From: an uncultured Bacteroidota bacterium
GTDB lineage: Bacteria; Bacteroidota; Bacteroidia; Bacteroidales; GCA-2748055
Direction: 5' to 3'
NCBI GenBank assembly: GCA_963783435.1
Contig: CAWANQ010000011.1
Location: forward strand, 12,808 to 76,807
Length of the DNA: 64,000 nt
Part shown: positions 12,646 through 61,399 of the stretch, piece by piece
Position numbering within the stretch: the stretch's first letter is position 1
Layout of the letters: each line of letters opens with the position of its first letter
Program-made: the position numbers and the translations under genes
Notes under the pieces: model-generated
Database searches by the model: none
What the model was told of the DNA's origin: nothing
Seen by the model: the letters and a program-made list of their open reading frames with translations, nothing else

Positions 12646-12647
12646 TA

Positions 12648-12780
12648 GGTAGAAGGTAGAAGGTAGAAGGTAGAAGGTGATTGGTGATTGGTGATTGGTG
12701 ATTGGTGATTGGTGATTGGTGAGTGGTGAGGGTTGATTGGTGATTGGTGATTGGTGATTGGTGAGGGGTGAATGGTGACA
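12648..12780 (+). repeat. heptamer array A: 19 in-phase units, (GGTAGAA)4 then (GGTGATT)6 and variants
   Basis: Counted directly. It starts 3 nt after the MATE stop. Every unit carries TAG or TGA on the + strand, and the whole array contains a single C. Confidence 0.95.
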
Positions 12781-13047
12781 GCTGGCTGCGCCAGATTAGA
12801 AAAAATGAGAGGAGCCGGTTGCAGAACCGAGGCGAATCGAAGATCGGCGAAGCCAACCCGAGCTCGATGAGGCCAAAGGCCGAGTCAAATGTGACCGGCT
12901 TTTCACTTTCTGTAAAATTGCGTAACTTGCAACAGATATGAATCCTAACATCAAACATATCAACCTTTACCATTCCTACGGAATTGGTCTCTACGAGTGC
13001 TGGATGTTCTATCATTAGCACCCGTGGGCAGGCAGCGTGATTTTTGC

Positions 13048-13126
13048 ATCACCACCCACCCCTCACCCCTCACCGCTCTCCACTCACCACCCACTATCCA
13101 CTGAGTACTATTTACTACCCACTATT
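13048..13126 (-). repeat. heptamer array B (about 11 units, G/T-rich strand is the minus strand)
   Basis: The + strand reads catcaccacccacccctcacccctcacc...ccactatccactgagtactatttactacccactatt. It ends exactly at the ATG at 13127. Confidence 0.9.
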
Positions 13127-13953: not shown

Positions 13954-16317
13954 ATGACAGAACGGATTGTAAAACTAAGGGAGGAGAGCCTCCAGGCAGT
14001 CAACCGCCTTTCGGCAGAACGCGGGATTTTGGTTACTCAGTTTTATCAGGGATTATCTGCTACACAGTACTCCATTCCTGTTCAGCGGGCCAAAGCCTTC
14101 GAGTACATACTGCAACATAAGGCCATCTGTATCAATGAAGGTGAGCTGATTGTAGGTGAACGAGGTCCGGCTCCCAAAGCCACACCCACCTACCCTGAGA
14201 TAAACCTTCATTCCCTGAAGGATCTGGATATTCTCGACAGTAGAAAGAAGGTCTCCTTTAAGGTGGACTCCGAAACCCGCAAGGCCTTCCAAGAGACAAT
14301 TATTCCATACTGGACGGGTAAGACAAACCGGGAGCGGATTTTTAATAACCTTGAATCCAATTGGCTGGACGCTTACGAGGCGGGTATGTTTACCGAGTTT
14401 CAGGAGCAGCGGGCTCCGGGTCATACGGTGCTGGGAAGTAAAATCTACCGGCAGGGTATGACAGATATCATTGAAGAGGTCCGGAGCGCGATTTCCGGCC
14501 TGGATTTTCTGAATGACCCGGAGGCCTACGACAAGAGGGAAGAGTTAAAGGCGATGGAGATCACTGCAAGGGCTATCATTATGTATGCAGAAAGGCATGC
14601 AGTCCGCCTGGAAGAACTGGCTGTCCTGGAACAAAATTCTGAGCGAAAGCAAGAGTTGCTGAATATGGCCCATGTTTGCAGAAGGGTTCCCGCCCAGGCC
14701 CCCACAAATATGCATGAAGCACTCCAATACTATTGGTTTATCCACCTGGGAGTTATTACCGAATTAAATCCCTGGGACTCTTTCAATCCCGGTCGATTGG
14801 ATCAACATCTTTTCCCATTTTACACAGCCGATTTAAGTTCAGGCAGCTTAACCCGGGAGGGTGCAGTGGAACTGCTGCAGTCCTTCTGGGTGAAGTTCAA
14901 CAACCATCCCTCCCCGCCCAAGGTGGGGGTAACTGCTGAAGAGAGCAATACCTATACCGATTTTTGCCTGATCAATGTGGGAGGGTTAAAAGCCGATGGA
15001 TCCAATGCGGTCAACGAACTCAGTTTTGTGATCCTGGATGTGATTGAGGAGATGCGTCTGCTTCAACCCTCATCCATGGTGCAAATCAGCAAGAAGAATC
15101 CGGACAGCTTTGTGGAGCGCACCGTAAAGATTGTAAAGACCGGATTTGGACAGCCCTCCATTTTTAATACGGATGCAATCGTTCAAGAATTGGTTCGACA
15201 GGGCAAGAGCCTTGAGGATGCCCGCAATGGAGGCGCTTCCGGCTGCGTGGAGAGTGGCGCTTTTGGTACGGAAGCTTACATACTGACTGGCTATTTTAAC
15301 CTGGTGAAGGTATTGGAAGTGACCCTTCACAATGGCGTGGATCCGCTTACGGGAAAGCAGATAGGGATAAAGTCGGGCGAAGTGAAGACCATGGAATCGT
15401 TTGAGGAATTGCTTGCGGCCTTCTCCAGGCAACTAAAACACTTTATCGATATCAAGATTACCGGGAACAACCTGATTGAACGCATTTTCAGTACACATTT
15501 GCCGGTTCCCTTTCTCTCTCTTCTGATTGACGATTGTATGGCCAATGGCAAGGATTACAATTGCGGGGGAGCCAGGTATAACACCAGTTATATTCAGGGA
15601 GTTGGGCTGGGTTCCATTACCGATATGTTTGCAGCCATTGAGACCCATGTATTTAGCAAGCAGAACATGAGCATGGAGACCTTCCTGAAGGTATTGGCCG
15701 ATAATTATGAAGGGCACGACGAATTGCGGGCCGAGCTCCTCTATGAGACACCCAAATATGGAAACGATGACGACAGGGCGGACCAGCATGCCAGCTGGGT
15801 TTTCGATGCCTTTTATGAGGCAGTAAATGGACGAAAAAGTCCCCGTGGAGCCACCTACCGGATCAATATGCTGCCCACCACGAGCCATGTCTATTTTGGC
15901 AAGGTGGTAGGGGCCACCCCCGATGGCCGCCTGGCTCATGAACCCCTCTCAGAGGGAATCTCACCTTTCCAGGGTATGGACAAACTAGGGCCCACCGCAG
16001 TTCTGAATTCTGCGCTTAAAATCGACCATCTGAAGACCGGGGGAACCCTGCTCAACCAGAAGTTCACCCCTGAATTTTTTCAGGATGATCGCAGCATTCA
16101 GAAAATAACCCAGTTGATCCGCAGCTATTTCAGAATGGACGGCCACCACATCCAGTTTAATGTGGTTTCTGCAGACACCCTGCGCGATGCCCAGAAACAT
16201 CCGGAGAAGTATCAGGACCTGATTGTGCGTGTGGCCGGCTACAGCGATTATTTCAACGACCTGGGGCCTGAGCTGCAGGACGAGATCATACGCCGCACCG
16301 AACATAGTAGTACTTAG
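13954..16317 (+). CDS. hypD: glycyl radical enzyme (PFL-like), probable trans-4-hydroxy-L-proline dehydratase
   Basis: 787 aa with the glycyl loop VRVAGYSD (G762) and the thiyl loop GCVE (C431/E433). It is paired with an activase. The substrate call rests on remembered HypD active-site positions that match at a constant offset (see findings). Confidence 0.85.
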   Translation: MTERIVKLREESLQAVNRLSAERGILVTQFYQGLSATQYSIPVQRAKAFEYILQHKAICINEGELIVGERGPAPKATPTYPEINLHSLKDLDILDSRKKVSFKVDSETRKAFQETIIPYWTGKTNRERIFNNLESNWLDAYEAGMFTEFQEQRAPGHTVLGSKIYRQGMTDIIEEVRSAISGLDFLNDPEAYDKREELKAMEITARAIIMYAERHAVRLEELAVLEQNSERKQELLNMAHVCRRVPAQAPTNMHEALQYYWFIHLGVITELNPWDSFNPGRLDQHLFPFYTADLSSGSLTREGAVELLQSFWVKFNNHPSPPKVGVTAEESNTYTDFCLINVGGLKADGSNAVNELSFVILDVIEEMRLLQPSSMVQISKKNPDSFVERTVKIVKTGFGQPSIFNTDAIVQELVRQGKSLEDARNGGASGCVESGAFGTEAYILTGYFNLVKVLEVTLHNGVDPLTGKQIGIKSGEVKTMESFEELLAAFSRQLKHFIDIKITGNNLIERIFSTHLPVPFLSLLIDDCMANGKDYNCGGARYNTSYIQGVGLGSITDMFAAIETHVFSKQNMSMETFLKVLADNYEGHDELRAELLYETPKYGNDDDRADQHASWVFDAFYEAVNGRKSPRGATYRINMLPTTSHVYFGKVVGATPDGRLAHEPLSEGISPFQGMDKLGPTAVLNSALKIDHLKTGGTLLNQKFTPEFFQDDRSIQKITQLIRSYFRMDGHHIQFNVVSADTLRDAQKHPEKYQDLIVRVAGYSDYFNDLGPELQDEIIRRTEHSST

Positions 16318-16440
16318 TGGATAGTAGTACTTAGTGGATAGTAGTACTTAGTGGATAGTAGATAGTAGATAGTGGATAGTGGATAGTGGATAGTAGTACT
16401 TAGTGCATAGTGGATAGTAGATAGTAAATAGTGGGTGGGT
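16304..16440 (+). repeat. array C: 17-mers ATAGTAGTACTTAGTGG (x3, plus 1 variant) interleaved with ATAGTRG heptamers
   Basis: Counted directly. It begins inside the last 4 codons of the glycyl radical enzyme (GRE), and the stop TAG at 16315-16317 is part of the first unit. Confidence 0.95.
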
Positions 16441-37795: not shown

Positions 37796-37883
37796 GGAGA
37801 GATGCCGGAGTGGTCGAACGGGGCGGTCTCGAAAACCGTTGTGCCCCTCGCGGGCACCGGGGGTTCGAATCCCTCTCTCTCCG
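37796..37883 (+). tRNA. tRNA-Ser (anticodon CGA)
   Basis: Folded by hand. The acceptor stem is GGAGAGA/TCTCTCC. The anticodon stem-loop is GCGGT-CTCGAAA-ACCGT. There is a long variable arm tgcccctcgcgggca and a T-loop GGTTCGAATCC. CCA is not encoded. Confidence 0.9.
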
Positions 37884-37893
37884 CAAAACAATG

Positions 37894-37930
37894 AATAACC
37901 CACAGCCAAACGGCTGTGGGTTATTTTATT
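37894..37930 (+). terminator. intrinsic terminator after tRNA-Ser
   Basis: A 14-bp stem aataacccacagcc/ggctgtgggttatt with loop aaac, followed by ttatt. Confidence 0.75.
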
Positions 37931-37975
37931 CCAGACAGCGTTGAGAGCTTGCTCTCATAAGCTGGATGAGAATAA

Positions 37976-38015
37976 AATAACCCTTTTTGCGCAGACATGC
38001 GCAAAAGGGGTTATT
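37976..38015. repeat. second AATAACCC...GGGTTATT hairpin
   Basis: aataaccctttttgcgc-agacat-gcgcaaaaggggttatt forms a 16-17 bp stem with one bulge. It has the same terminal octamers as the terminator hairpin 80 nt upstream. Confidence 0.7.
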
Positions 38016-38048
38016 CATTGTTTTGTAGGTCCTCCCTCAAAGGGATCA

Positions 38049-38121
38049 AGAGCGAAGCGAATAATCCCATTGGGAGAGCGAAGCGAATAATCCCATTGGG
38101 AGAGCGAAGCGAATAATCCCC
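38049..38121. repeat. 26-nt tandem repeat x2.8 (agagcgaagcgaataatcccattggg)
   Basis: There are two perfect copies (38049-38074 and 38075-38100) and a third truncated copy. Confidence 0.9.
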
Positions 38122-55580: not shown

Positions 55581-55632
55581 ACTACCCATTACCCATTAAC
55601 CCATTAACCCATTAACCATTACCCTTCTACCC
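55581..55632 (-). repeat. array E (7 units of 7-8 nt: ACTACCC ATTACCC ATTAACCC x2 ...)
   Basis: Counted directly. On the minus (gene-sense) strand it reads gggtagaagggtaatggttaatgggttaatgggttaatgggtaatgggtagt. It occupies almost the whole rnfA-to-HD spacer. Confidence 0.95.
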
Positions 55633-55643
55633 GTTTAGCGCAG

Positions 55644-56216
55644 CTAAACTATCCCCGCAAACCCCATAAAGGCAAGGGCCATCAAGCCGGCTACGATGAA
55701 CGCGATGGGAACGCCTTTTAAGCGAGCCGGTACATTCAGCAGATCCAGCTGCTCCCGAATCCCTGAGAAGGTAATCAGAGCCAGGCCGAAACCTACCGCA
55801 TTTCCAATGGCATAAACCGTACTCTCCAGCAAATTAAAGTCCTTTTGAACTGCCAGGACTGCCACACCCAGAACGGCACAGTTGGTGGTTATAAGAGGCA
55901 AGAAGATTCCAAGTGCCTGGTAGAGTGGGGGACTGATTTTTTTCAGGATGATCTCCACCAGCTGGACCAGGGATGCGATGACCAGAATAAAGGTGATGGT
56001 CCGCATATAGATAATATCCAGAGGAACCAGTACCGAATAGTAGATCAGATAAGTGACCAGGGTGGCGATGACCATCACAAAGGTCACAGCGCCGGTCATT
56101 CCAATGGCAGTCTCGACCTTGCTGGAGACGCCTATAAAGGGGCAGATTCCCAGGAACTGGTTGAGTACAATATTGCTGACAAATACAGCGCCTATAATGA
56201 TTAAGATATATTCCAT
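55644..56216 (-). CDS. rnfA: Rnf electron transport complex subunit A
   Basis: 190 aa and polytopic. The RnfA pattern is FVSNIVLNQFLGICPFIGVS, and it is last in the rnfBCDGEA order. Confidence 0.95.
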   Translation of the reverse strand: MEYILIIIGAVFVSNIVLNQFLGICPFIGVSSKVETAIGMTGAVTFVMVIATLVTYLIYYSVLVPLDIIYMRTITFILVIASLVQLVEIILKKISPPLYQALGIFLPLITTNCAVLGVAVLAVQKDFNLLESTVYAIGNAVGFGLALITFSGIREQLDLLNVPARLKGVPIAFIVAGLMALAFMGFAGIV

Positions 56217-56218
56217 GG

Positions 56219-56806
56219 TCAGCTGGTTTTTTCTTTGAGCATGTTGGCTAATACAATCAGGTATCCCAGGGCAATAAATGCTCCCGGAGGCAGGATAAAC
56301 AGAAGCAATCCATCCCCACTAATCAGTTTCAGGCCAAAGAAGGCACCGCTTCCCAGCAGCTCTCTCACTGCCCCAAGCACCGTAAGTGCCATGGTGAAAC
56401 CAAGTCCCATTCCGGCCCCATCCACCAGGGAGGACCAGATGGTGTTTTTAGAGGCAAAGGCTTCTGCTCTTCCCAGCACCAGGCAGTTGACCACAATCAG
56501 TGGTATAAATAGACCCAGCGCATCAAACAGAGAAGGAACATATCCCTTCATCACCAGTTCGACCACGGTCACAAATGAGGCAATGATCACAATAAACGCG
56601 GGGATCCTTACCTTATCCGGGATTACATTTTTCACAAGCGAAACCACCAGGTTGGACATCACCAGCACAAAAGTGGTGGCCAGTCCCATCCCAAGTCCGT
56701 TAATGGCCGAGGTGGTCACCCCCAGTGTAGGACACAATCCAAGGAACAGCGCAAACACTGCGTTCTCTTTGATAAATCCTTTGCTAAAATTTTTCCACTG
56801 ATTCAT
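56219..56806 (-). CDS. rnfE: Rnf electron transport complex subunit E
   Basis: The RnfE pattern is FIKENAVFALFLGLCPTLGVTT. The ATG at 56806 is preferred, because the track start at 56854 would extend into repeat array F. Confidence 0.9.
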   Translation of the reverse strand: MNQWKNFSKGFIKENAVFALFLGLCPTLGVTTSAINGLGMGLATTFVLVMSNLVVSLVKNVIPDKVRIPAFIVIIASFVTVVELVMKGYVPSLFDALGLFIPLIVVNCLVLGRAEAFASKNTIWSSLVDGAGMGLGFTMALTVLGAVRELLGSGAFFGLKLISGDGLLLFILPPGAFIALGYLIVLANMLKEKTS

Positions 56807-56844
56807 ATGTAAGTATAAAGTTGAAAGTATAAAGTCTATTTTTT

Positions 56845-57083
56845 CACTACGCACTAACCACTAATCACTAACCACTAATCACTAATCACTACCCACTACT
56901 CACTAACTTACTATCCACTACCCACTACCCACTACCCACTACCCACTACCCACTACCCACTACCCACTACCCACTACCCACTACCCACTACCCACTACCC
57001 ACTACCCACTACCCACTACCCACTACCCACTACCCACTACCCACTACCCACTAACCACTATTCACTACCCACTACTCACTATT
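56845..57083 (-). repeat. array F: 34 heptamer units, 19 of them perfect CACTACC (sense-strand GGTAGTG), 56916-57048
   Basis: Counted unit by unit. There are 9 variant units, one 8-nt phase slip, 19 perfect units, then 5 variant units. The rnfG stop (57072-57074) and its last 3 codons lie inside the array. Confidence 0.97.
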
Positions 57084-57641
57084 AAGTGCATCGTACGCCC
57101 GTTGTACGGCATCGCAATAGGCCCTGGAGGTGATGGTAGAGGCGGTGATGGCATCCACATCTCCACGGTCTTTCCTGACTGCCAGTTTAAAATTATCGGG
57201 ATGTTGCCCCATAAACTGAAGGTTAAAATCCGATTTATCCCTCTCCATTTTATCACCCAATCCCGGGGTTTCTGCATGTTTAATCACAGCGATATCGATG
57301 ATTGAACCGTCGGGGGCAAACCCCACCATCAGCTTAAACTCTCCGCTGAAGCCTTTATTGGTAAAGGTCTCTGCTGCAATGCCCAAAATTTCATCCCCTT
57401 TTCTGGCTGTGTAAAAATAGAGGGTGTCTCCATCTACAGCCACCTTCTTCACTTCCTGAGAGGGCTCATTGTCGAAACCCGGCACCACCACCTGGATGGC
57501 ATCATTTTTCTTTTTCAGTTCGGCCAGACGGATGGGTTCTTTGGTCAGTGCATAAACCGATCCCAAGAGCCCCGCTGCCACCAGGGTGACCACAAAAAGT
57601 GTGGCGACCATGCTTACGAAAGTAGATTCTTTTTTAGCCAC
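57072..57641 (-). CDS. rnfG: Rnf electron transport complex subunit G
   Basis: FMN-binding domain pattern (DAITASTITS). A GTG at 57641 gives MAKKESTFVSMVATLF... and an 8-nt overlap with the rnfD stop. The track ATG at 57677 is also possible. Confidence 0.85.
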   Translation of the reverse strand: MAKKESTFVSMVATLFVVTLVAAGLLGSVYALTKEPIRLAELKKKNDAIQVVVPGFDNEPSQEVKKVAVDGDTLYFYTARKGDEILGIAAETFTNKGFSGEFKLMVGFAPDGSIIDIAVIKHAETPGLGDKMERDKSDFNLQFMGQHPDNFKLAVRKDRGDVDAITASTITSRAYCDAVQRAYDALNSE

Positions 57642-58626
57642 GGGATACCTCCTTTCCAAATCGTTTGGGTTTGACAAATTTGTTGATCAACGGTGTGAAA
57701 CCATTGAATATGAGGATGGCAAATTGCACCCCTTCGGGGTAGGCTCCAAAGACCCTTATAAGTACCGTTACGATCCCAATTCCTATTCCATAGATGATCA
57801 TCCCTTTTTGGGTCATGGGTGAGGTAACGTAATCGGTGGCCATGTATATGGCTCCCAGCATGAGTCCCCCGGAAAGCAGGTGGAACAAAGGATCGGCAAA
57901 GCGATCGGGATTAGCCAGCCAGAGGATTCCTGCAAATACGAAAACAGATCCCAGAATGGAGAGCGGAATGTGCCAGGATATAATTTTCTTATACATCATG
58001 TAGAACATGCCAATCAGTAAGGCCAGAGCCGAAACTTCTCCGGCTGAGCCCATCATTTTTCCCAGAAACAGATTGAGGTAGGAGGGAAGCTCAGGCAAAA
58101 GTTCACCCACTGTTTTTGTGGCAAGTCCCTCTTTCATCATTCCCAGGGGGGTGGGTCCTGTGATTGCATCGGTATAGGACATCCACTGTCCGGCTTCAGG
58201 CCAGGCAGTCATGGCCACAGGAAAGGAGATAAAGAGGAATACCCTGCCCACCAGTGCCGGGTTAAAAATATTGTTGCCCAATCCGCCAAATGTCATCTTT
58301 CCGATACCCACGGCTGCCAGTGCCCCGATCATCACCATCCAGATGGGTATGTTTGTAGGAAGGCAAAATGCCAGCAACAAACCGGTGAGCAGGGCAGAGC
58401 CATCCAGGTGGGTGGTTTTTACCTTCATCATAAATTTCTGGATCAGGTATTCAAACAAGATGCAGGAGGCTATGGATACCGTAGTGACCACGATCATCCC
58501 AATACCAAAGTAGAATACCGAGACGCCCAGTGCAGGCAGCAGTGATATGATCACCCCATACATGAGCTTGGGGACCGATCCCGAAGAGTAGGCATGAGGT
58601 GAAGGTGATACAATGAATTTATTCAT
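57634..58626 (-). CDS. rnfD: Rnf electron transport complex subunit D
   Basis: 330 aa and polytopic. The start SPSPHA... and the flavinylation-region context are consistent with RnfD. Confidence 0.95.
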   Translation of the reverse strand: MNKFIVSPSPHAYSSGSVPKLMYGVIISLLPALGVSVFYFGIGMIVVTTVSIASCILFEYLIQKFMMKVKTTHLDGSALLTGLLLAFCLPTNIPIWMVMIGALAAVGIGKMTFGGLGNNIFNPALVGRVFLFISFPVAMTAWPEAGQWMSYTDAITGPTPLGMMKEGLATKTVGELLPELPSYLNLFLGKMMGSAGEVSALALLIGMFYMMYKKIISWHIPLSILGSVFVFAGILWLANPDRFADPLFHLLSGGLMLGAIYMATDYVTSPMTQKGMIIYGIGIGIVTVLIRVFGAYPEGVQFAILIFNGFTPLINKFVKPKRFGKEVSRG

Positions 58627-58644: not shown

Positions 58645-59979
58645 TTAGACCGCTTTTCGTGCTCTTATAATTTTTCCAAGTTCGGCTTTCCCAAGCCTGA
58701 TGTAATCCAGCAGTGGACGGGAGGAGGGACAGGTGTAGCTACAACTTCCACATTCGATACAATCCATCACTTTGTCACTTTCCATCCGTTCAAATAGCCC
58801 TTTTTGGGCCAATGTCATAAGGAGGTATGGCTCTAGTCCCATGGGACATACAGTCAGGCATTTGCTGCATCGGATGCAAGGAAGGACCTCTTTCCTTTTG
58901 GCTTCTGCCTTGTCTAAAAGAAGAATGCCCGATGAGCCTTTTACCACAGGGACATCAAGGCTTGAGAGCGCTTTTCCCATCATGGGACCTCCGTTAATGA
59001 CCTTGCCCACCTGTTCGGGCAAACCGCCTGCCTTCTCTACCAGGTAGGAGACCGGAGTCCCAATTCTTACCTTAAAGTTTGAAGGTTTTGCCAGCGATTT
59101 TCCGGTCACTGTAACCACGCGTTCAATGAGGGGCTTGTTTCTCATGACAGCTTCATAGGCCGCCAGTGCTGTACCCACATTAAATACAACCACACCCACA
59201 TCTATGGGCAATCCTCCTGAGGGTACCTCACGTTTGAGCAGGGCCTGCACCAGCTGCTTTTCACCTCCCTGGGGATACTGTACCTTTAAGGCCTGAACCG
59301 CTATAGAACTTCCCTCAGCCGCTTTCTTCATCTTCTCAATGGCCTCCGGTTTGTTATTCTCTATGCCCAGTATGGCTTTCTCCACTCCCAGACCTTTCAT
59401 CAATACCTGGATCCCAGAGATTATCTCCTCTGATTGTGATGTCATCAAAGCCTCATCGGCTGTGAGGTAAGGCTCGCACTCCACTCCATTGACCACCAGG
59501 AATTCAGCTTTTTTACCCTTGGGCACCATTAACTTCACATGACTGGGGAAGGTGGCTCCCCCCAGTCCGACGATTCCGGCCTCCAGGATTTTTTTACGGA
59601 TATCCTCGGCAGAAAGTACGGTATTCCTGACCAGGTCGTCGGAGCGGTCGATAAACTCTTCCCATAAATCTCCTTCCACCTGAATCTGCACTGCTGTTCT
59701 CCTGTAACCCGAACTATCGGGAAACTTATCCACCTTTAACACCTTTCCGGAGACAGATGAGTGAATGTTGGTGGAGACAAATCCCTCTGATTGGGCAATG
59801 AGTTGACCCACTTTTACCTGATCTCCCCTGTTGACCAGAACTTTGGCCGGTGCGCCCAGGTGCTGGGATACAGGGATAATCACCACTTCAGGCAGATCGA
59901 GTACCTCAATGGCAGCACCCGAAGAAAGTTTATGTTCGGGGGGATGAACACCGCCCCTTGAAAATGTTTTAAGACTCAT
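58645..59979 (-). CDS. rnfC: Rnf electron transport complex subunit C
   Basis: 444 aa. Motifs are GGVHPPEHK and GLGGATFP, plus two CxxCxxCxxxCP clusters. Confidence 0.95.
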   Translation of the reverse strand: MSLKTFSRGGVHPPEHKLSSGAAIEVLDLPEVVIIPVSQHLGAPAKVLVNRGDQVKVGQLIAQSEGFVSTNIHSSVSGKVLKVDKFPDSSGYRRTAVQIQVEGDLWEEFIDRSDDLVRNTVLSAEDIRKKILEAGIVGLGGATFPSHVKLMVPKGKKAEFLVVNGVECEPYLTADEALMTSQSEEIISGIQVLMKGLGVEKAILGIENNKPEAIEKMKKAAEGSSIAVQALKVQYPQGGEKQLVQALLKREVPSGGLPIDVGVVVFNVGTALAAYEAVMRNKPLIERVVTVTGKSLAKPSNFKVRIGTPVSYLVEKAGGLPEQVGKVINGGPMMGKALSSLDVPVVKGSSGILLLDKAEAKRKEVLPCIRCSKCLTVCPMGLEPYLLMTLAQKGLFERMESDKVMDCIECGSCSYTCPSSRPLLDYIRLGKAELGKIIRARKAV

Positions 59980-59991
59980 TGAATCAACTAT

Positions 59992-60852
59992 TTAATTTCT
60001 GCTTCTACGGTTTCTACTTTTGCCGGCCTGGGGGGTGGGAAAGTTTAGTTCCAGAATGGCACTTGTGGGACATTCCACCACACATTTGCGACACAGCTTA
60101 CACTTCTCCGAATCGATAAATGCCAGGTTATTGTTCATGGTGATGGCATCATAAGGACATACTTTAAAACACTTGGAACATCCGATACAGGCTACACTGC
60201 AGTTCTTTTTCGCCACAGCCCCTTTCTCCTCATTGATACAGCTTACAAATATTTTACGGTCCTTTTTATTCTTCTTACGAAGCTCAATGATATCCCTGGG
60301 ACAGGCATCCACACAGGCTCCGCAGGCAGTACACTTATCATCCACCACTACGGGGAGTTCAGTCACCGGATCCATATGGATGGCATCGAAATTGCATACC
60401 ACCACACAATCCCCTTCACCCAGGCATCCGTGTGGGCATCCTCCCTCACCCGTGTAGAGACTATGCGCAATGGCGCAGGTAGGTGCTCCGTCGTATACAT
60501 TGGTTCTGGGCCTGAATTCAGGAGCCCCATTGCACCTGATCACGGCAACCCGGGGTGCCTGTTCAATGGCTTGTTTGCCTAGTATGGAGGCAGCTTTCGC
60601 CATGGTATCATTGCCTCCCACCGGACAAAACAGGTCGTCCCATGATTCTGTTTTAACCAGTGTTTCGGCAAAATTTCGACAGCCTGGAAATCCACATCCG
60701 CCACAATTGGCAGCTGGTAAGGCTTCCTCTACCTGGTCGATCCGGGGATCTTCGAATACCTTGAATTTCTGCGCCACAAAATAGAGGATGATGGCAGCGG
60801 CGGCGCCAATTCCAACCAGGGTGATTATGGTAAATAGAATGATCTGGCTCAT
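59992..60852 (-). CDS. rnfB: Rnf electron transport complex subunit B
   Basis: 286 aa with an N-terminal TM helix. Motifs are LPAANCGGCGFPGC and several 4Fe-4S motifs. Confidence 0.95.
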   Translation of the reverse strand: MSQIILFTIITLVGIGAAAAIILYFVAQKFKVFEDPRIDQVEEALPAANCGGCGFPGCRNFAETLVKTESWDDLFCPVGGNDTMAKAASILGKQAIEQAPRVAVIRCNGAPEFRPRTNVYDGAPTCAIAHSLYTGEGGCPHGCLGEGDCVVVCNFDAIHMDPVTELPVVVDDKCTACGACVDACPRDIIELRKKNKKDRKIFVSCINEEKGAVAKKNCSVACIGCSKCFKVCPYDAITMNNNLAFIDSEKCKLCRKCVVECPTSAILELNFPTPQAGKSRNRRSRN

Positions 60853-61280
60853 TGCACGGTGTTGGTTTTCTTTATACTGAATGTAAATGTAGACTCGATG
60901 CGTTTTCGGAAAAGATAGAGAAGCAAATAGTAGGGGAGGATGGATAGCAAGGCAAGGCTACCCGCCTTAAGTTCGCTCACTCCCATTAATATAAGCAGGA
61001 TCAATACGGCCATCAGGAGTAAAAATGGGTAGAAATACCCCAGTGCCACTGCTTTAAATCCCAGGCGCCTGGCTACCTGCACATGGACCTGCTCACCGGT
61101 TTTATAGCTTGCTCCCGAGAGCGGGACATCCAGGAATTTCTCTTCCTGGTCGGCAGCACCACATACCCCTTTAGCGTGACAGGCAGAACATGCAGATTCA
61201 CTATTAATCTTTACATGCGCCACATCCCCTTCAATGCGATCAACGATTCCTAAGTGGTCAATTAAGTTATGGTCGGACAT
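60849..61280 (-). CDS. RseC/MucC-family (SoxR-reducing system) protein
   Basis: 143 aa. It has the CSACHAKGVCG motif, two C-terminal TM helices, and an ATGA overlap with rnfB. Confidence 0.8.
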   Translation of the reverse strand: MSDHNLIDHLGIVDRIEGDVAHVKINSESACSACHAKGVCGAADQEEKFLDVPLSGASYKTGEQVHVQVARRLGFKAVALGYFYPFLLLMAVLILLILMGVSELKAGSLALLSILPYYLLLYLFRKRIESTFTFSIKKTNTVQ

Positions 61281-61399
61281 AGTAGCTGTTTAGTCCAAAA
61301 CAGGTACAAAATTATCGATGTAGAGCGAATCTCAGTTGCTGAATATCATATTAATCCAAATTCCGGGCAATTTATTCTGGATTTAAATAGCCAGAGGGC

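Follow-up and report, generated by a model that had tools for sequence, protein, structure and literature searches.

In a 64,000-nucleotide stretch of DNA from an uncultured Bacteroidales bacterium (positions 12,808 to 76,807 of contig CAWANQ010000011.1, hereafter the window), the genes rnfG and rnfE of the rnf operon, which serves energy conservation, are separated by a tandem array of about 34 units of 7 nt, located at 56845-57083 and oriented, like the operon, on the minus strand. Our analysis indicates that this array is most probably a hypervariable heptanucleotide simple sequence repeat (SSR), in other words a long microsatellite, driven by slippage and passively carried in the rnf mRNA as an untranslated spacer. 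Its origin in this species is recent, at a position bounded by the end of rnfG on one side and, on the other, by an older ACTTTAN array that precedes rnfE. It grows and shrinks by whole 7-nt units, which would be due to slipped-strand mispairing during replication or repair. The only functional consequence that could be regarded as certain would be the loss of the translational coupling between rnfG and rnfE that is present in relatives.

Structure of the array

Tandem Repeats Finder placed the array at 56845-57081, with a period of 7, 33.7 copies, 90% matches, a score of 346 and CACTACC as the consensus, and parsing of the sequence into units carries it to 57083. A direct scan returned 56915-57053 as the longest perfect period-7 run, 139 nt that read on the minus strand as (GGTAGTG)19 plus partial units and that include (CACTACC)19 at 56916-57048 of the plus strand; both methods agree with the original prediction of a 239-bp array with about 34 units, 19 of them perfect. 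On the sense strand of the operon, the order is AATAGTG AGTAGTG GGTAGTG AATAGTG GTTAGTG, followed by (GGTAGTG)19, about 10 degenerate units, a 38-nt A/T-rich stretch and the rnfE ATG, with nearly all the G3 tracts of the spacer falling in the perfect core. The units are of the type xxTAGTG (GGTAGTG, AGTAGTG, ATTAGTG and GTTAGTG, among others), and C is almost absent from this strand. Because it is free of mutations, the core was probably expanded recently, and the error-free (GGTAGTG)19 would represent the latest expansion of the array.

The length of the array is that of the assembled contig, and the number of copies that it gives is plausible. Perfect tandem runs are hard to assemble, one of the related contigs described below (L086) breaks within its array, and a perfect run of 139 nt corresponds to k-2 for k=141, namely the longest run that such an assembly can resolve. 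An origin of the array, or of its length, in the assembly process is, however, hardly credible, as arrays of the same family occupy the rnfG-rnfE site in several contigs that were assembled separately and from other samples, and degenerate units in a unique order flank the core on both sides. By our reasoning, the run left by a collapsed de Bruijn cycle would be no shorter than k, hence 141-147 nt (127-133 nt with k=127) in place of the 139 nt seen.

At its upstream end, the array reaches into rnfG. Both the final three codons of this gene (AAT AGT GAG, for N-S-E) and the TAG stop that follows them (cta at 57072-57074) lie inside the array and, based on the sequence and on C-terminal comparison, are derived from its units (57072-57083, minus strand); the distance between this stop and the rnfE ATG (56806) is 265 nt, all as initially proposed. 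The array had also been said to fill this gap, which holds true for most of it: the period-7 array stops 38 nt short of the ATG, and the remaining spacer (56807-56844, minus strand, AAAAAATAGACTTTATACTTTCAACTTTATACTTACAT) is a different, A/T-rich sequence with a weak 7-nt periodicity (ACTTTAT/ACTTTCA). Judging from comparison with the loci L081-L083, L085, L086, L208, L005, L006 and L008, all introduced below, this proximal stretch is an older and degenerate ACTTTAN heptamer array, and it is presumed to be the site where translation of rnfE initiates independently.

Every unit of the array carries a TAG on the sense strand, and stops are found in all three frames of this strand, as the original prediction had deduced from the 7-nt period. 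Because of these stops, a change in copy number never alters RnfG beyond its ...NSE end, which might be one reason why the array is tolerated; another might be that rnfE retains an A/U-rich initiation region of its own. The opposite strand had been described as free of G and of stops, and this proved accurate for the perfect core alone: over the whole array, the plus strand contains one G (56851) and seven stops (TAA, in the degenerate CACTAAC or CACTAAT units of the flanks). A hidden coding capacity of this C-rich strand was considered and rejected, given these TAA stops and given that no ATG, GTG or TTG is found within the array.

Alleles within the species

A look-up of the exact RnfE protein returned six more contigs (L081-L086), with about 94-97% DNA identity to the window. 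In L081 and L085, the spacer reads AATAGTG (AGTAGTG)3 GATAGTG (GTTAGTG)2 GGTAGTG, for 8 units, and in L082 and L083 it is the same except for (GGTAGTG)3, for 10 units, this being the only difference between L081 and L082. L086 has at least 19 units, mostly ATTAGTG, and the contig begins inside the array; L084 has no array, and its sequence is unrelated from 4 nt upstream of the rnfE ATG; the window allele has 34 units, inclusive of (GGTAGTG)19. Contigs encoding an identical RnfE thus carry 0, 8, 10, at least 19 or 34 units, and the dominant unit varies among them. A slipped-strand hypervariable locus was one of the possibilities that the original prediction had listed, and this series, with its clean difference of one versus three GGTAGTG copies, bears it out.

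The sequence next to rnfE behaves in a more uniform fashion, as the proximal AAAAAATAGACTTTATACTTTCAACTTTATAC... segment shows 1-3 base changes in L081-L083 and L085, and is more diverged in L086, where an extra ACTTTAT unit is also present. A more distant locus, L208 (89-92% DNA identity, with an identical RnfA), has a gap of 42 nt occupied by (ACTTTAN)6 only (L208 869-910). Because L208 carries the ACTTTAN array alone, the TAGTG array is the younger of the two, and its origin is recent. In L084 (1-79), DNA identity is 96.5% from 4 nt upstream of the ATG on, and a different rnfG end is found before that point, which would point either to recombination with its breakpoint in the spacer or to a contig that is chimeric.

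The rnfG-rnfE junction in other Bacteroidales

A scan for RnfE in species-representative genomes yielded 80 loci, nearly all of them labelled as metagenome-assembled genomes of Bacteroidales or other Bacteroidota, the best match showing 96% protein identity and about 75-77% DNA identity. Of these loci, 79 yielded both rnfG and rnfE and could be compared at the junction: the two genes overlap by 4 nt or 1 nt in most of them, and the gap is 1 nt in the four closest species (L001-L004). Longer gaps are often filled by other short arrays, mostly with period 7, and heptamer arrays unrelated to the one in the window sit at this junction in L005-L008, L027, L074 and L078. Their units include GACTTTC/GACTAAC in L006 and L008, ACCTTTN in L007, CAGGAAW in L027 (141 nt) and CACACTT in L078, among others, and the array in the L005 gap is made of 8-9 nt units (GACTTTAC/GACTTTAT). 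Arrays are also present at other rnf junctions in L025, L031 and L078, in some genomes at several junctions each. The spacers of this clade thus acquire heptamer arrays time and again and independently, with no restriction to a given sequence. That relatives have a 1-nt gap, overlapping genes, or unrelated heptamers that are not G-rich between rnfG and rnfE also speaks against the idea of the array as a regulatory device specific to rnf and built around G-quadruplexes.

The same comparison is informative on the end of RnfG. Orthologues of this protein extend for 5-9 residues beyond a conserved ..RAYDA(L/F), and the protein in the window ends in ..RAYDALNSE*; the comparison shows that the variable and dispensable C-terminal tail was replaced by array units. 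In L006 and L008, too, rnfG owes its stop and final codons to the local array.

Two further observations concern this junction. An ACTTTAN/GACTTTN array next to the rnfE ATG (window 56807-56844, L208, L005, L006 and L008) is common to several species-level lineages, at about 75-90% DNA identity; such sharing is unusual for an intergenic repeat and may relate to translation initiation in the absence of a Shine-Dalgarno sequence. In L023 (4827-5449) and L074 (5671-6001), the rnfG-rnfE gaps measure 621 and 329 nt, respectively, and contain repeat arrays as well as an apparent inserted small open reading frame (ORF), whose product we take, as an impression only, to be similar to the four-helix-bundle proteins of the type found in 23S rRNA intervening sequences.

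Related arrays in the window and in metagenomes

The rnf array belongs to a genome-wide family. Besides it, the window holds at least five further intergenic period-7 arrays, and all six sit between genes confirmed by Pfam or NCBIfam. When perfect runs of at least three copies were sought over the whole 64 kb at periods 4-12, period 7 gave five runs (276 nt) and period 8 a single run of 27 nt; because only period 7 gives several perfect runs, chance can be excluded as the origin of the arrays. Over 918 kb, comprising the window and related loci, 42 of the 119 arrays have a period of 7, 14, 21, 28 or 42. In all window arrays, one strand is nearly devoid of C and has a stop codon (TAG, TGA or TAA) in each unit, and the members other than the rnf array mostly have G2 tracts only. 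The rnfG-rnfE spacer had been considered anomalous, and it is in fact unusual among rnf operons, but it represents one instance of a trait that many intergenic sites here and in relatives share, and is not specific to rnf.

Directly after the stop of a MatE gene, (GGTAGAA)4-5 is followed by about 15 copies of GGTGATT (12646-12778, plus strand), G-rich on the MatE sense strand. The array at 16304-16434 (plus strand), with TAGTGGA, TAGTAGA and TAGTAGTACT units, overlaps the pflB stop (16315-16317) and is also G-rich on the sense strand; it is a composite, where the 7-nt TAGTGGA/TAGTAGA units are interleaved with the 10-nt TAGTAGTACT, giving rise to higher-order periods of 17 and 52 nt. A (TAATGGG/TTAATGGG)n array (55583-55624, minus strand) lies between the rnfA stop and the start of an HD-domain phosphohydrolase gene, a site where sister strains have a different spacer sequence than the window. 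The array at 13049-13126 has the minus strand as its G-rich strand, with the 5' end of that strand adjoining the pflA ATG (13127), and is C-rich on the pflA sense strand.

To understand how far this family extends, metagenomes were scanned with the pattern (TAGTGRD)3TAGTG, which returned at least 120 loci (L087-L206), with a GC content of 31-70%; 128 arrays are present among the matches listed, to which all the figures in this paragraph refer, and none of the 120 loci overlaps the window. The median number of units is 5, and TAGTGGG dominates in only 15 of the 128 arrays. Where the gene on the 5' side is on the same strand (n=62), the array follows its stop codon at a median distance of 3 nt, and 46 of the 62 arrays lie within 15 nt of it; the median gap is 54 nt for 5' genes on the opposite strand (n=37), 87 nt for 3' genes on the same strand (n=46), and 83 nt for 3' genes on the opposite strand (n=43). 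Such anchoring does not seem to be an artefact of ORF calling, as the median length of the ORFs abutting the arrays is 274 aa, and Pfam domains that extend to the C-terminus were found in 8 of the 10 tested, which include RecG, Ddl, UDP-glucose dehydrogenase and a TPP enzyme. In the window arrays at 12646, 16304 and 57083, too, the TAGTG strand has its 5' end at an upstream stop codon.

This regular placement, which is striking, and the constancy of the TAGTG core, with only positions 6-7 varying both here and in the 120 metagenome loci listed (31-70% GC), could be expected if an OB-fold protein of the cold-shock or S1-like kind (one molecule per approximately 7 nt), or some other factor, bound the heptamers in RNA or in single-stranded DNA, and if the array influenced translation, the recycling of ribosomes or the protection of 3' ends, a kind of role already put forward for the TAACTGA repeats. 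CspB, in fact, binds heptamer repeats with one protein per unit, as far as the mention of this work in PMC4679880 goes. We find this explanation very unlikely nonetheless, as the scan pattern itself required TAGTG, so that the constancy of the core is in part there by construction, and the core could also be inherited through slippage from one seed. Relatives, moreover, have quite different units at the rnfG-rnfE site, and no candidate binder was identified.

G-quadruplex potential and the antisense strand

The original prediction had pointed out a match of the sense strand to the G-quadruplex (G4) motif, and for the window allele this is correct, the G3N4 pattern being matched many times. The sense spacer of this allele contains 21 G3 tracts and has a G4Hunter score of 0.88, compared to 1 tract and 0.34 for L081, 3 tracts and 0.48 for L082, no tracts and 0.13 for L086, and no tracts and 0.22 for L084. 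Only the window allele, therefore, reaches at least four G3 tracts, while the sister alleles, with 0-3, remain below a canonical G4. When G4 energies were allowed for in ViennaRNA, four quadruplexes appeared in the minimum free energy (MFE) structure of the window allele (-72.4 versus -59.2 kcal/mol), and the G4 term brought no gain for the four other alleles. The motif match is hence specific to the window allele, and the G4 potential would be a by-product of whichever unit variant happened to expand. That G3N4 heptamers can fold into G4s is exemplified by the plant telomeric TTTAGGG, where each 7-nt unit has a single G3 tract and a loop of 4 nt; unlike the rnf array, however, TTTAGGG is synthesised by telomerase at the ends of eukaryotic chromosomes, and there is no evolutionary or functional relation between the two.

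It could be argued that (GGGUAGU)n RNA, or the G-rich non-template DNA, folds and attenuates transcription or translation or alters mRNA stability, and thereby lowers RnfE and RnfA relative to RnfB, RnfC, RnfD and RnfG. In addition to the number of G3 tracts, their 4-nt loops, the G4Hunter score and the four predicted quadruplexes, it would be in line with such a role that in vitro G4 formation is known for the G3 heptamers of Xanthomonas and Nostoc, whose position with respect to stop codons is the same (PMC4692102), and that RNA G4s are reported to inhibit translation in mycobacteria (PMC10801317). We consider it unlikely, however, that the array was built for this purpose, which is one of the possible roles listed in the original prediction. 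Sister alleles encoding an identical RnfE have 0-3 G3 tracts or no array, the other window arrays mostly have G2 only, just 9 of the 128 TAGTG arrays listed contain four G3 tracts as the motif demands, the arrays of relatives in the rnfG-rnfE gap are G-poor (ACCTTTN, CACACTT, GACTTTC), and no preference for four units is seen. Because the sister alleles and the family at large are mostly without G3 tracts, any G4 effect would be allele-specific and is unlikely to be the reason why the array exists.

A broader version of this idea, improbable in our opinion, would have TAGTG arrays as a functional class, so far undescribed and present in many taxa, of 3'-end elements anchored to stop codons, with stops in all frames, almost no C and a mutable length, and whose G3-rich allele here would fold into RNA or DNA quadruplexes that set RnfE and RnfA against RnfB, RnfC, RnfD and RnfG. 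If this were true, the rnf array would be a natural and tunable attenuator within an operon, in a phylum that lacks translational coupling based on Shine-Dalgarno sequences.

The C-rich, G-poor and rut-like composition attributed to the antisense strand agrees with our figures: an antisense RNA would have 42% C and 2.5% G, and would be essentially unstructured over its 278 nt, the MFE being -4.7 kcal/mol. No promoter for such an RNA was detected. Avoidance of Rho, which a C-rich spacer without translation would load, was also considered as the cause of the G-rich-sense orientation, and is weakened by a bias of only 34 to 19 between co-directional genes in the metagenome arrays listed, as well as by relatives, where the sense strand of the heptamer arrays in the rnf operon is in many cases rich in C and poor in G (ACCTTTN, CACACTT, AAATCCT).

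The rnf operon and probable transcription through the array

An NCBIfam search confirmed the identity of all the genes involved, each on the minus strand: an RseC-like gene (60849-61280), rnfB (59992-60852), rnfC (58645-59979), rnfD (57634-58626), rnfG (57072-57677; TIGR01947, 1.4e-46), rnfE (56219-56806; TIGR01948, 3.4e-80) and rnfA (55644-56216). The ORF of rnfG begins at 57677, and the recorded gene call for an identical protein begins at M23 (57611), for 179 aa. The overlap between rnfD and rnfG reported in the original prediction is therefore present with the ORF start, and is replaced by a 22-nt gap with the recorded start at 57611. Exact-protein look-ups returned no record for the 187-aa version of RnfG, nor for the MatE protein of the window.

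The -7 promoter element of Bacteroidetes has TAnnTTTG as its consensus. A motif scan identified a match (TAATTTTG, 61307-61314, minus strand) 27 nt upstream of the RseC-like ATG, the sole one on the minus strand between rnfA and the start of the first gene of the operon, and this is likely the operon promoter. As for an internal promoter for rnfE, the minus strand of the gap has no TTTG-N-TAnnTTTG, no bare TAnnTTTG and no sigma-70-like site. An intrinsic terminator or attenuator was rejected as well, as no terminator-like site is found on the minus strand at 56807-57071, where the sense strand is almost without C, and so was a known RNA family, with the Rfam scan of the window matching only a tRNA (37796-37883) and nothing in the rnfG-rnfE gap. 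Given that neither promoter nor terminator motifs are present in the gap, and that RnfE and RnfA are subunits the complex cannot do without, transcription probably proceeds through the array into rnfE and rnfA, and the array would be a passive component of the rnf mRNA.

Relation to known heptamer repeats

Long SSRs with units of 5-11 nt, among which heptanucleotides are the most abundant, are non-coding and frequent in only some genomes, and the heptanucleotide ones were attributed to polymerase slippage with a 7-nt footprint, in so far as Mrazek 2007 is related in PMC4679880. In terms of repeat length, non-coding location and whole-unit polymorphism between close relatives, the rnf array corresponds to this class as it is outlined there. 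Heptamers known as STRR have also been reported in cyanobacteria, reportedly by Mazel in 1990. Both are general classes, and the TAGTG unit and the anchoring to stop codons are features of the arrays described here.

The closest precedent is offered by the GGGNATC repeats of Xanthomonas and the GGGGA(C/T)T repeats of Nostoc, which form G4s in vitro and are transcribed, with no function assigned to them (Rehm et al. 2015, PMC4692102). In that study, the repeats were scattered and strongly non-coding, mostly located between co-directional ORFs, and overlapped stop codons or lay within 50 bp of them on the sense strand, with the 5' end of the G-strand nearest to the ORF; length and sequence varied between close relatives, and no link to particular gene functions emerged (PMC4692102). 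Like these repeats, the window allele, as opposed to its sister alleles, has a 7-nt unit with a tract of at least three Gs and at least four consecutive units, and the G-rich sense strand sits at the upstream stop in the case of rnfG, MatE, pflB and the above 46 of 62 metagenome arrays listed. On the other hand, the unit here is GGGTAGT/TAGTGRD, which contains a stop, the host is an uncultured Bacteroidales, and the 34 units of the array exceed the maximum of 26 reported for those repeats. The preference for four units seen by Rehm et al. also contrasts with the 8, 10, at least 19 and 34 units at the rnf site, and most members of the TAGTG family, along with the sister alleles, have no G3, so that G4 capacity does not define the family.

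A second precedent are the intergenic TAACTGA heptamer repeats of Beggiatoaceae, Cyanobacteria and five Bacteroidetes (MacGregor 2015, PMC4679880), which reach 43 copies in the latter (Gramella, Aequorivita), and whose place is taken by short, repeat-free gaps in close relatives with the same gene neighbours. These repeats have in common with ours a stop-containing heptamer, the presence of other heptamers in the same spacers, and contigs that break within the arrays. They differ in that they are mostly found just upstream of start codons, whereas the unit here is TAGTGGG and, in the matches listed, TAGTG arrays begin at stop codons and are a median of about 87 nt away from the next start.

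Slippage leading to copy-number change between close strains is also typical of the contingency repeats of Haemophilus, Neisseria and Moraxella, and the AGAT repeats of uspA2 indicate that a repeat in a transcribed leader can tune expression, as far as they are discussed in PMC4679880. Unlike those repeats, however, the rnf array lies outside any ORF or promoter spacer, has no link to genes for surface or host-interaction functions, and offers no ON/OFF mechanism. We therefore rejected the possibility of a phase-variation locus: the array is intergenic, no sigma-70-like or Bacteroidetes promoter motif is present in it or beside it, and the stop in its first units prevents any shift of the rnfG frame. 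No relevant paper emerged from a literature search on the GGGTAGT/CACTACC/TAGTGGG unit, and neither the TAGTG family nor its anchoring to stop codons was described in the papers open to the search.

Some of our data weigh against a merely slippage-driven and passive array. Both passive read-through and the lack of an effect on rnfEA expression are deductions made from sequence data, and some of the alleles may be re-assemblies of the same samples (the ENA/JGI pairs L081/L085 and L082/L083). Guo and Bartel (2016) reportedly found RNA G4 motifs to be depleted in bacteria, where 19 perfect G3 tracts in an mRNA are unusual. Furthermore, the anchoring of the 5' end of the TAGTG strand to ORF boundaries goes beyond what slippage alone would produce, and is similar to that of the GGGNATC repeats of Rehm et al. 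Finally, five of the six contigs from the same species keep an array, and the rnfG-rnfE junction has acquired heptamer arrays repeatedly in several lineages of the Bacteroidales, which could be due to selection and not just to a mutational hotspot. Together with the natural range of alleles at the rnf site, from 0 through 8, 10 and at least 19 to 34 units, these last two points would also be compatible with an evolvable tuning knob, namely a mutable array kept by selection, where the length or composition of the spacer sets the RnfEA:RnfBCDG ratio or the degree of translational uncoupling, so that populations span different expression states. This we hold to be rather doubtful, as equivalent arrays follow unrelated housekeeping genes (MatE and pflB here; RecG, Ddl and UDP-glucose dehydrogenase elsewhere) with no functional theme, and Rehm et al. 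found no such theme either and judged phase variation unlikely (PMC4692102). An ON/OFF switch would not be possible with an array in neither an ORF nor a promoter spacer, and array-rich genomes have arrays at many junctions, which fits a mutational bias.

A slippage-driven SSR thus remains our preferred explanation, and the rnf array shares all the positional and dynamic features of the known class of heptamer repeats, and differs from it in unit, host and length. The heptamer-repeat phenomenon hence extends to uncultured Bacteroidales, with an unusually long array inside the operon of an essential complex. The rule seen in Xanthomonas and Nostoc, whereby the 5' end of the G-rich strand lies on a stop codon, holds in turn for an unrelated family of units, in contigs with 31-70% GC, which hints at a common origin or at a common mechanism of tolerance. 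Why some bacterial genomes gather heptamer repeats has been a question since the cyanobacterial STRR, and the rnf locus leaves it unanswered. Nevertheless, the alleles that occur naturally at this site, some with G3 tracts and some lacking them, provide material to test the effect of length or of G4s on downstream expression. From a practical standpoint, heptamer arrays break short-read contigs and alter the annotated C-termini of neighbouring genes.

Other features of the window

A REP-like hairpin (..GGGTTACA(G/T)CTGGCTGCGCCAGG(T/A)TACAAAAA..) is found at 12779-12794, right after the GGTGATT array, and again in L082 (1556-1571), L083 (1414-1429), L208 (approximately 2100-2180, two copies) and L209 (approximately 895-925). 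In sister strains, this hairpin lies in the spacer between rnfA and the HD-domain gene, where the window has (TAATGGG)n. The 5' flank of the hairpin is GGTGATG, and the GGTGATT array hence looks like a slippage expansion seeded at the hairpin. Between the two oppositely oriented arrays of this region (12795-13048), where Rfam gave no match, a G+C-rich segment is present at 12800-12900, and a 26-codon ORF (MNPNIKHINLYHSYGIGLYECWMFYH) is found at 12939-13016, just upstream of pflA. GC skew was evaluated as a cue to the direction of replication and discarded, as it merely tracks gene orientation and is uninformative in this respect. Downstream of the tRNA, which is a tRNA-Ser(CGA) at 37796-37884, a perfect 26-nt tandem repeat with 2.8 copies (AGAGCGAAGCGAATAATCCCATTGGG) occupies 38049-38120, and the interval between the two contains a terminator-like hairpin at 37898-37925 and a longer palindrome at about 37975-38020.

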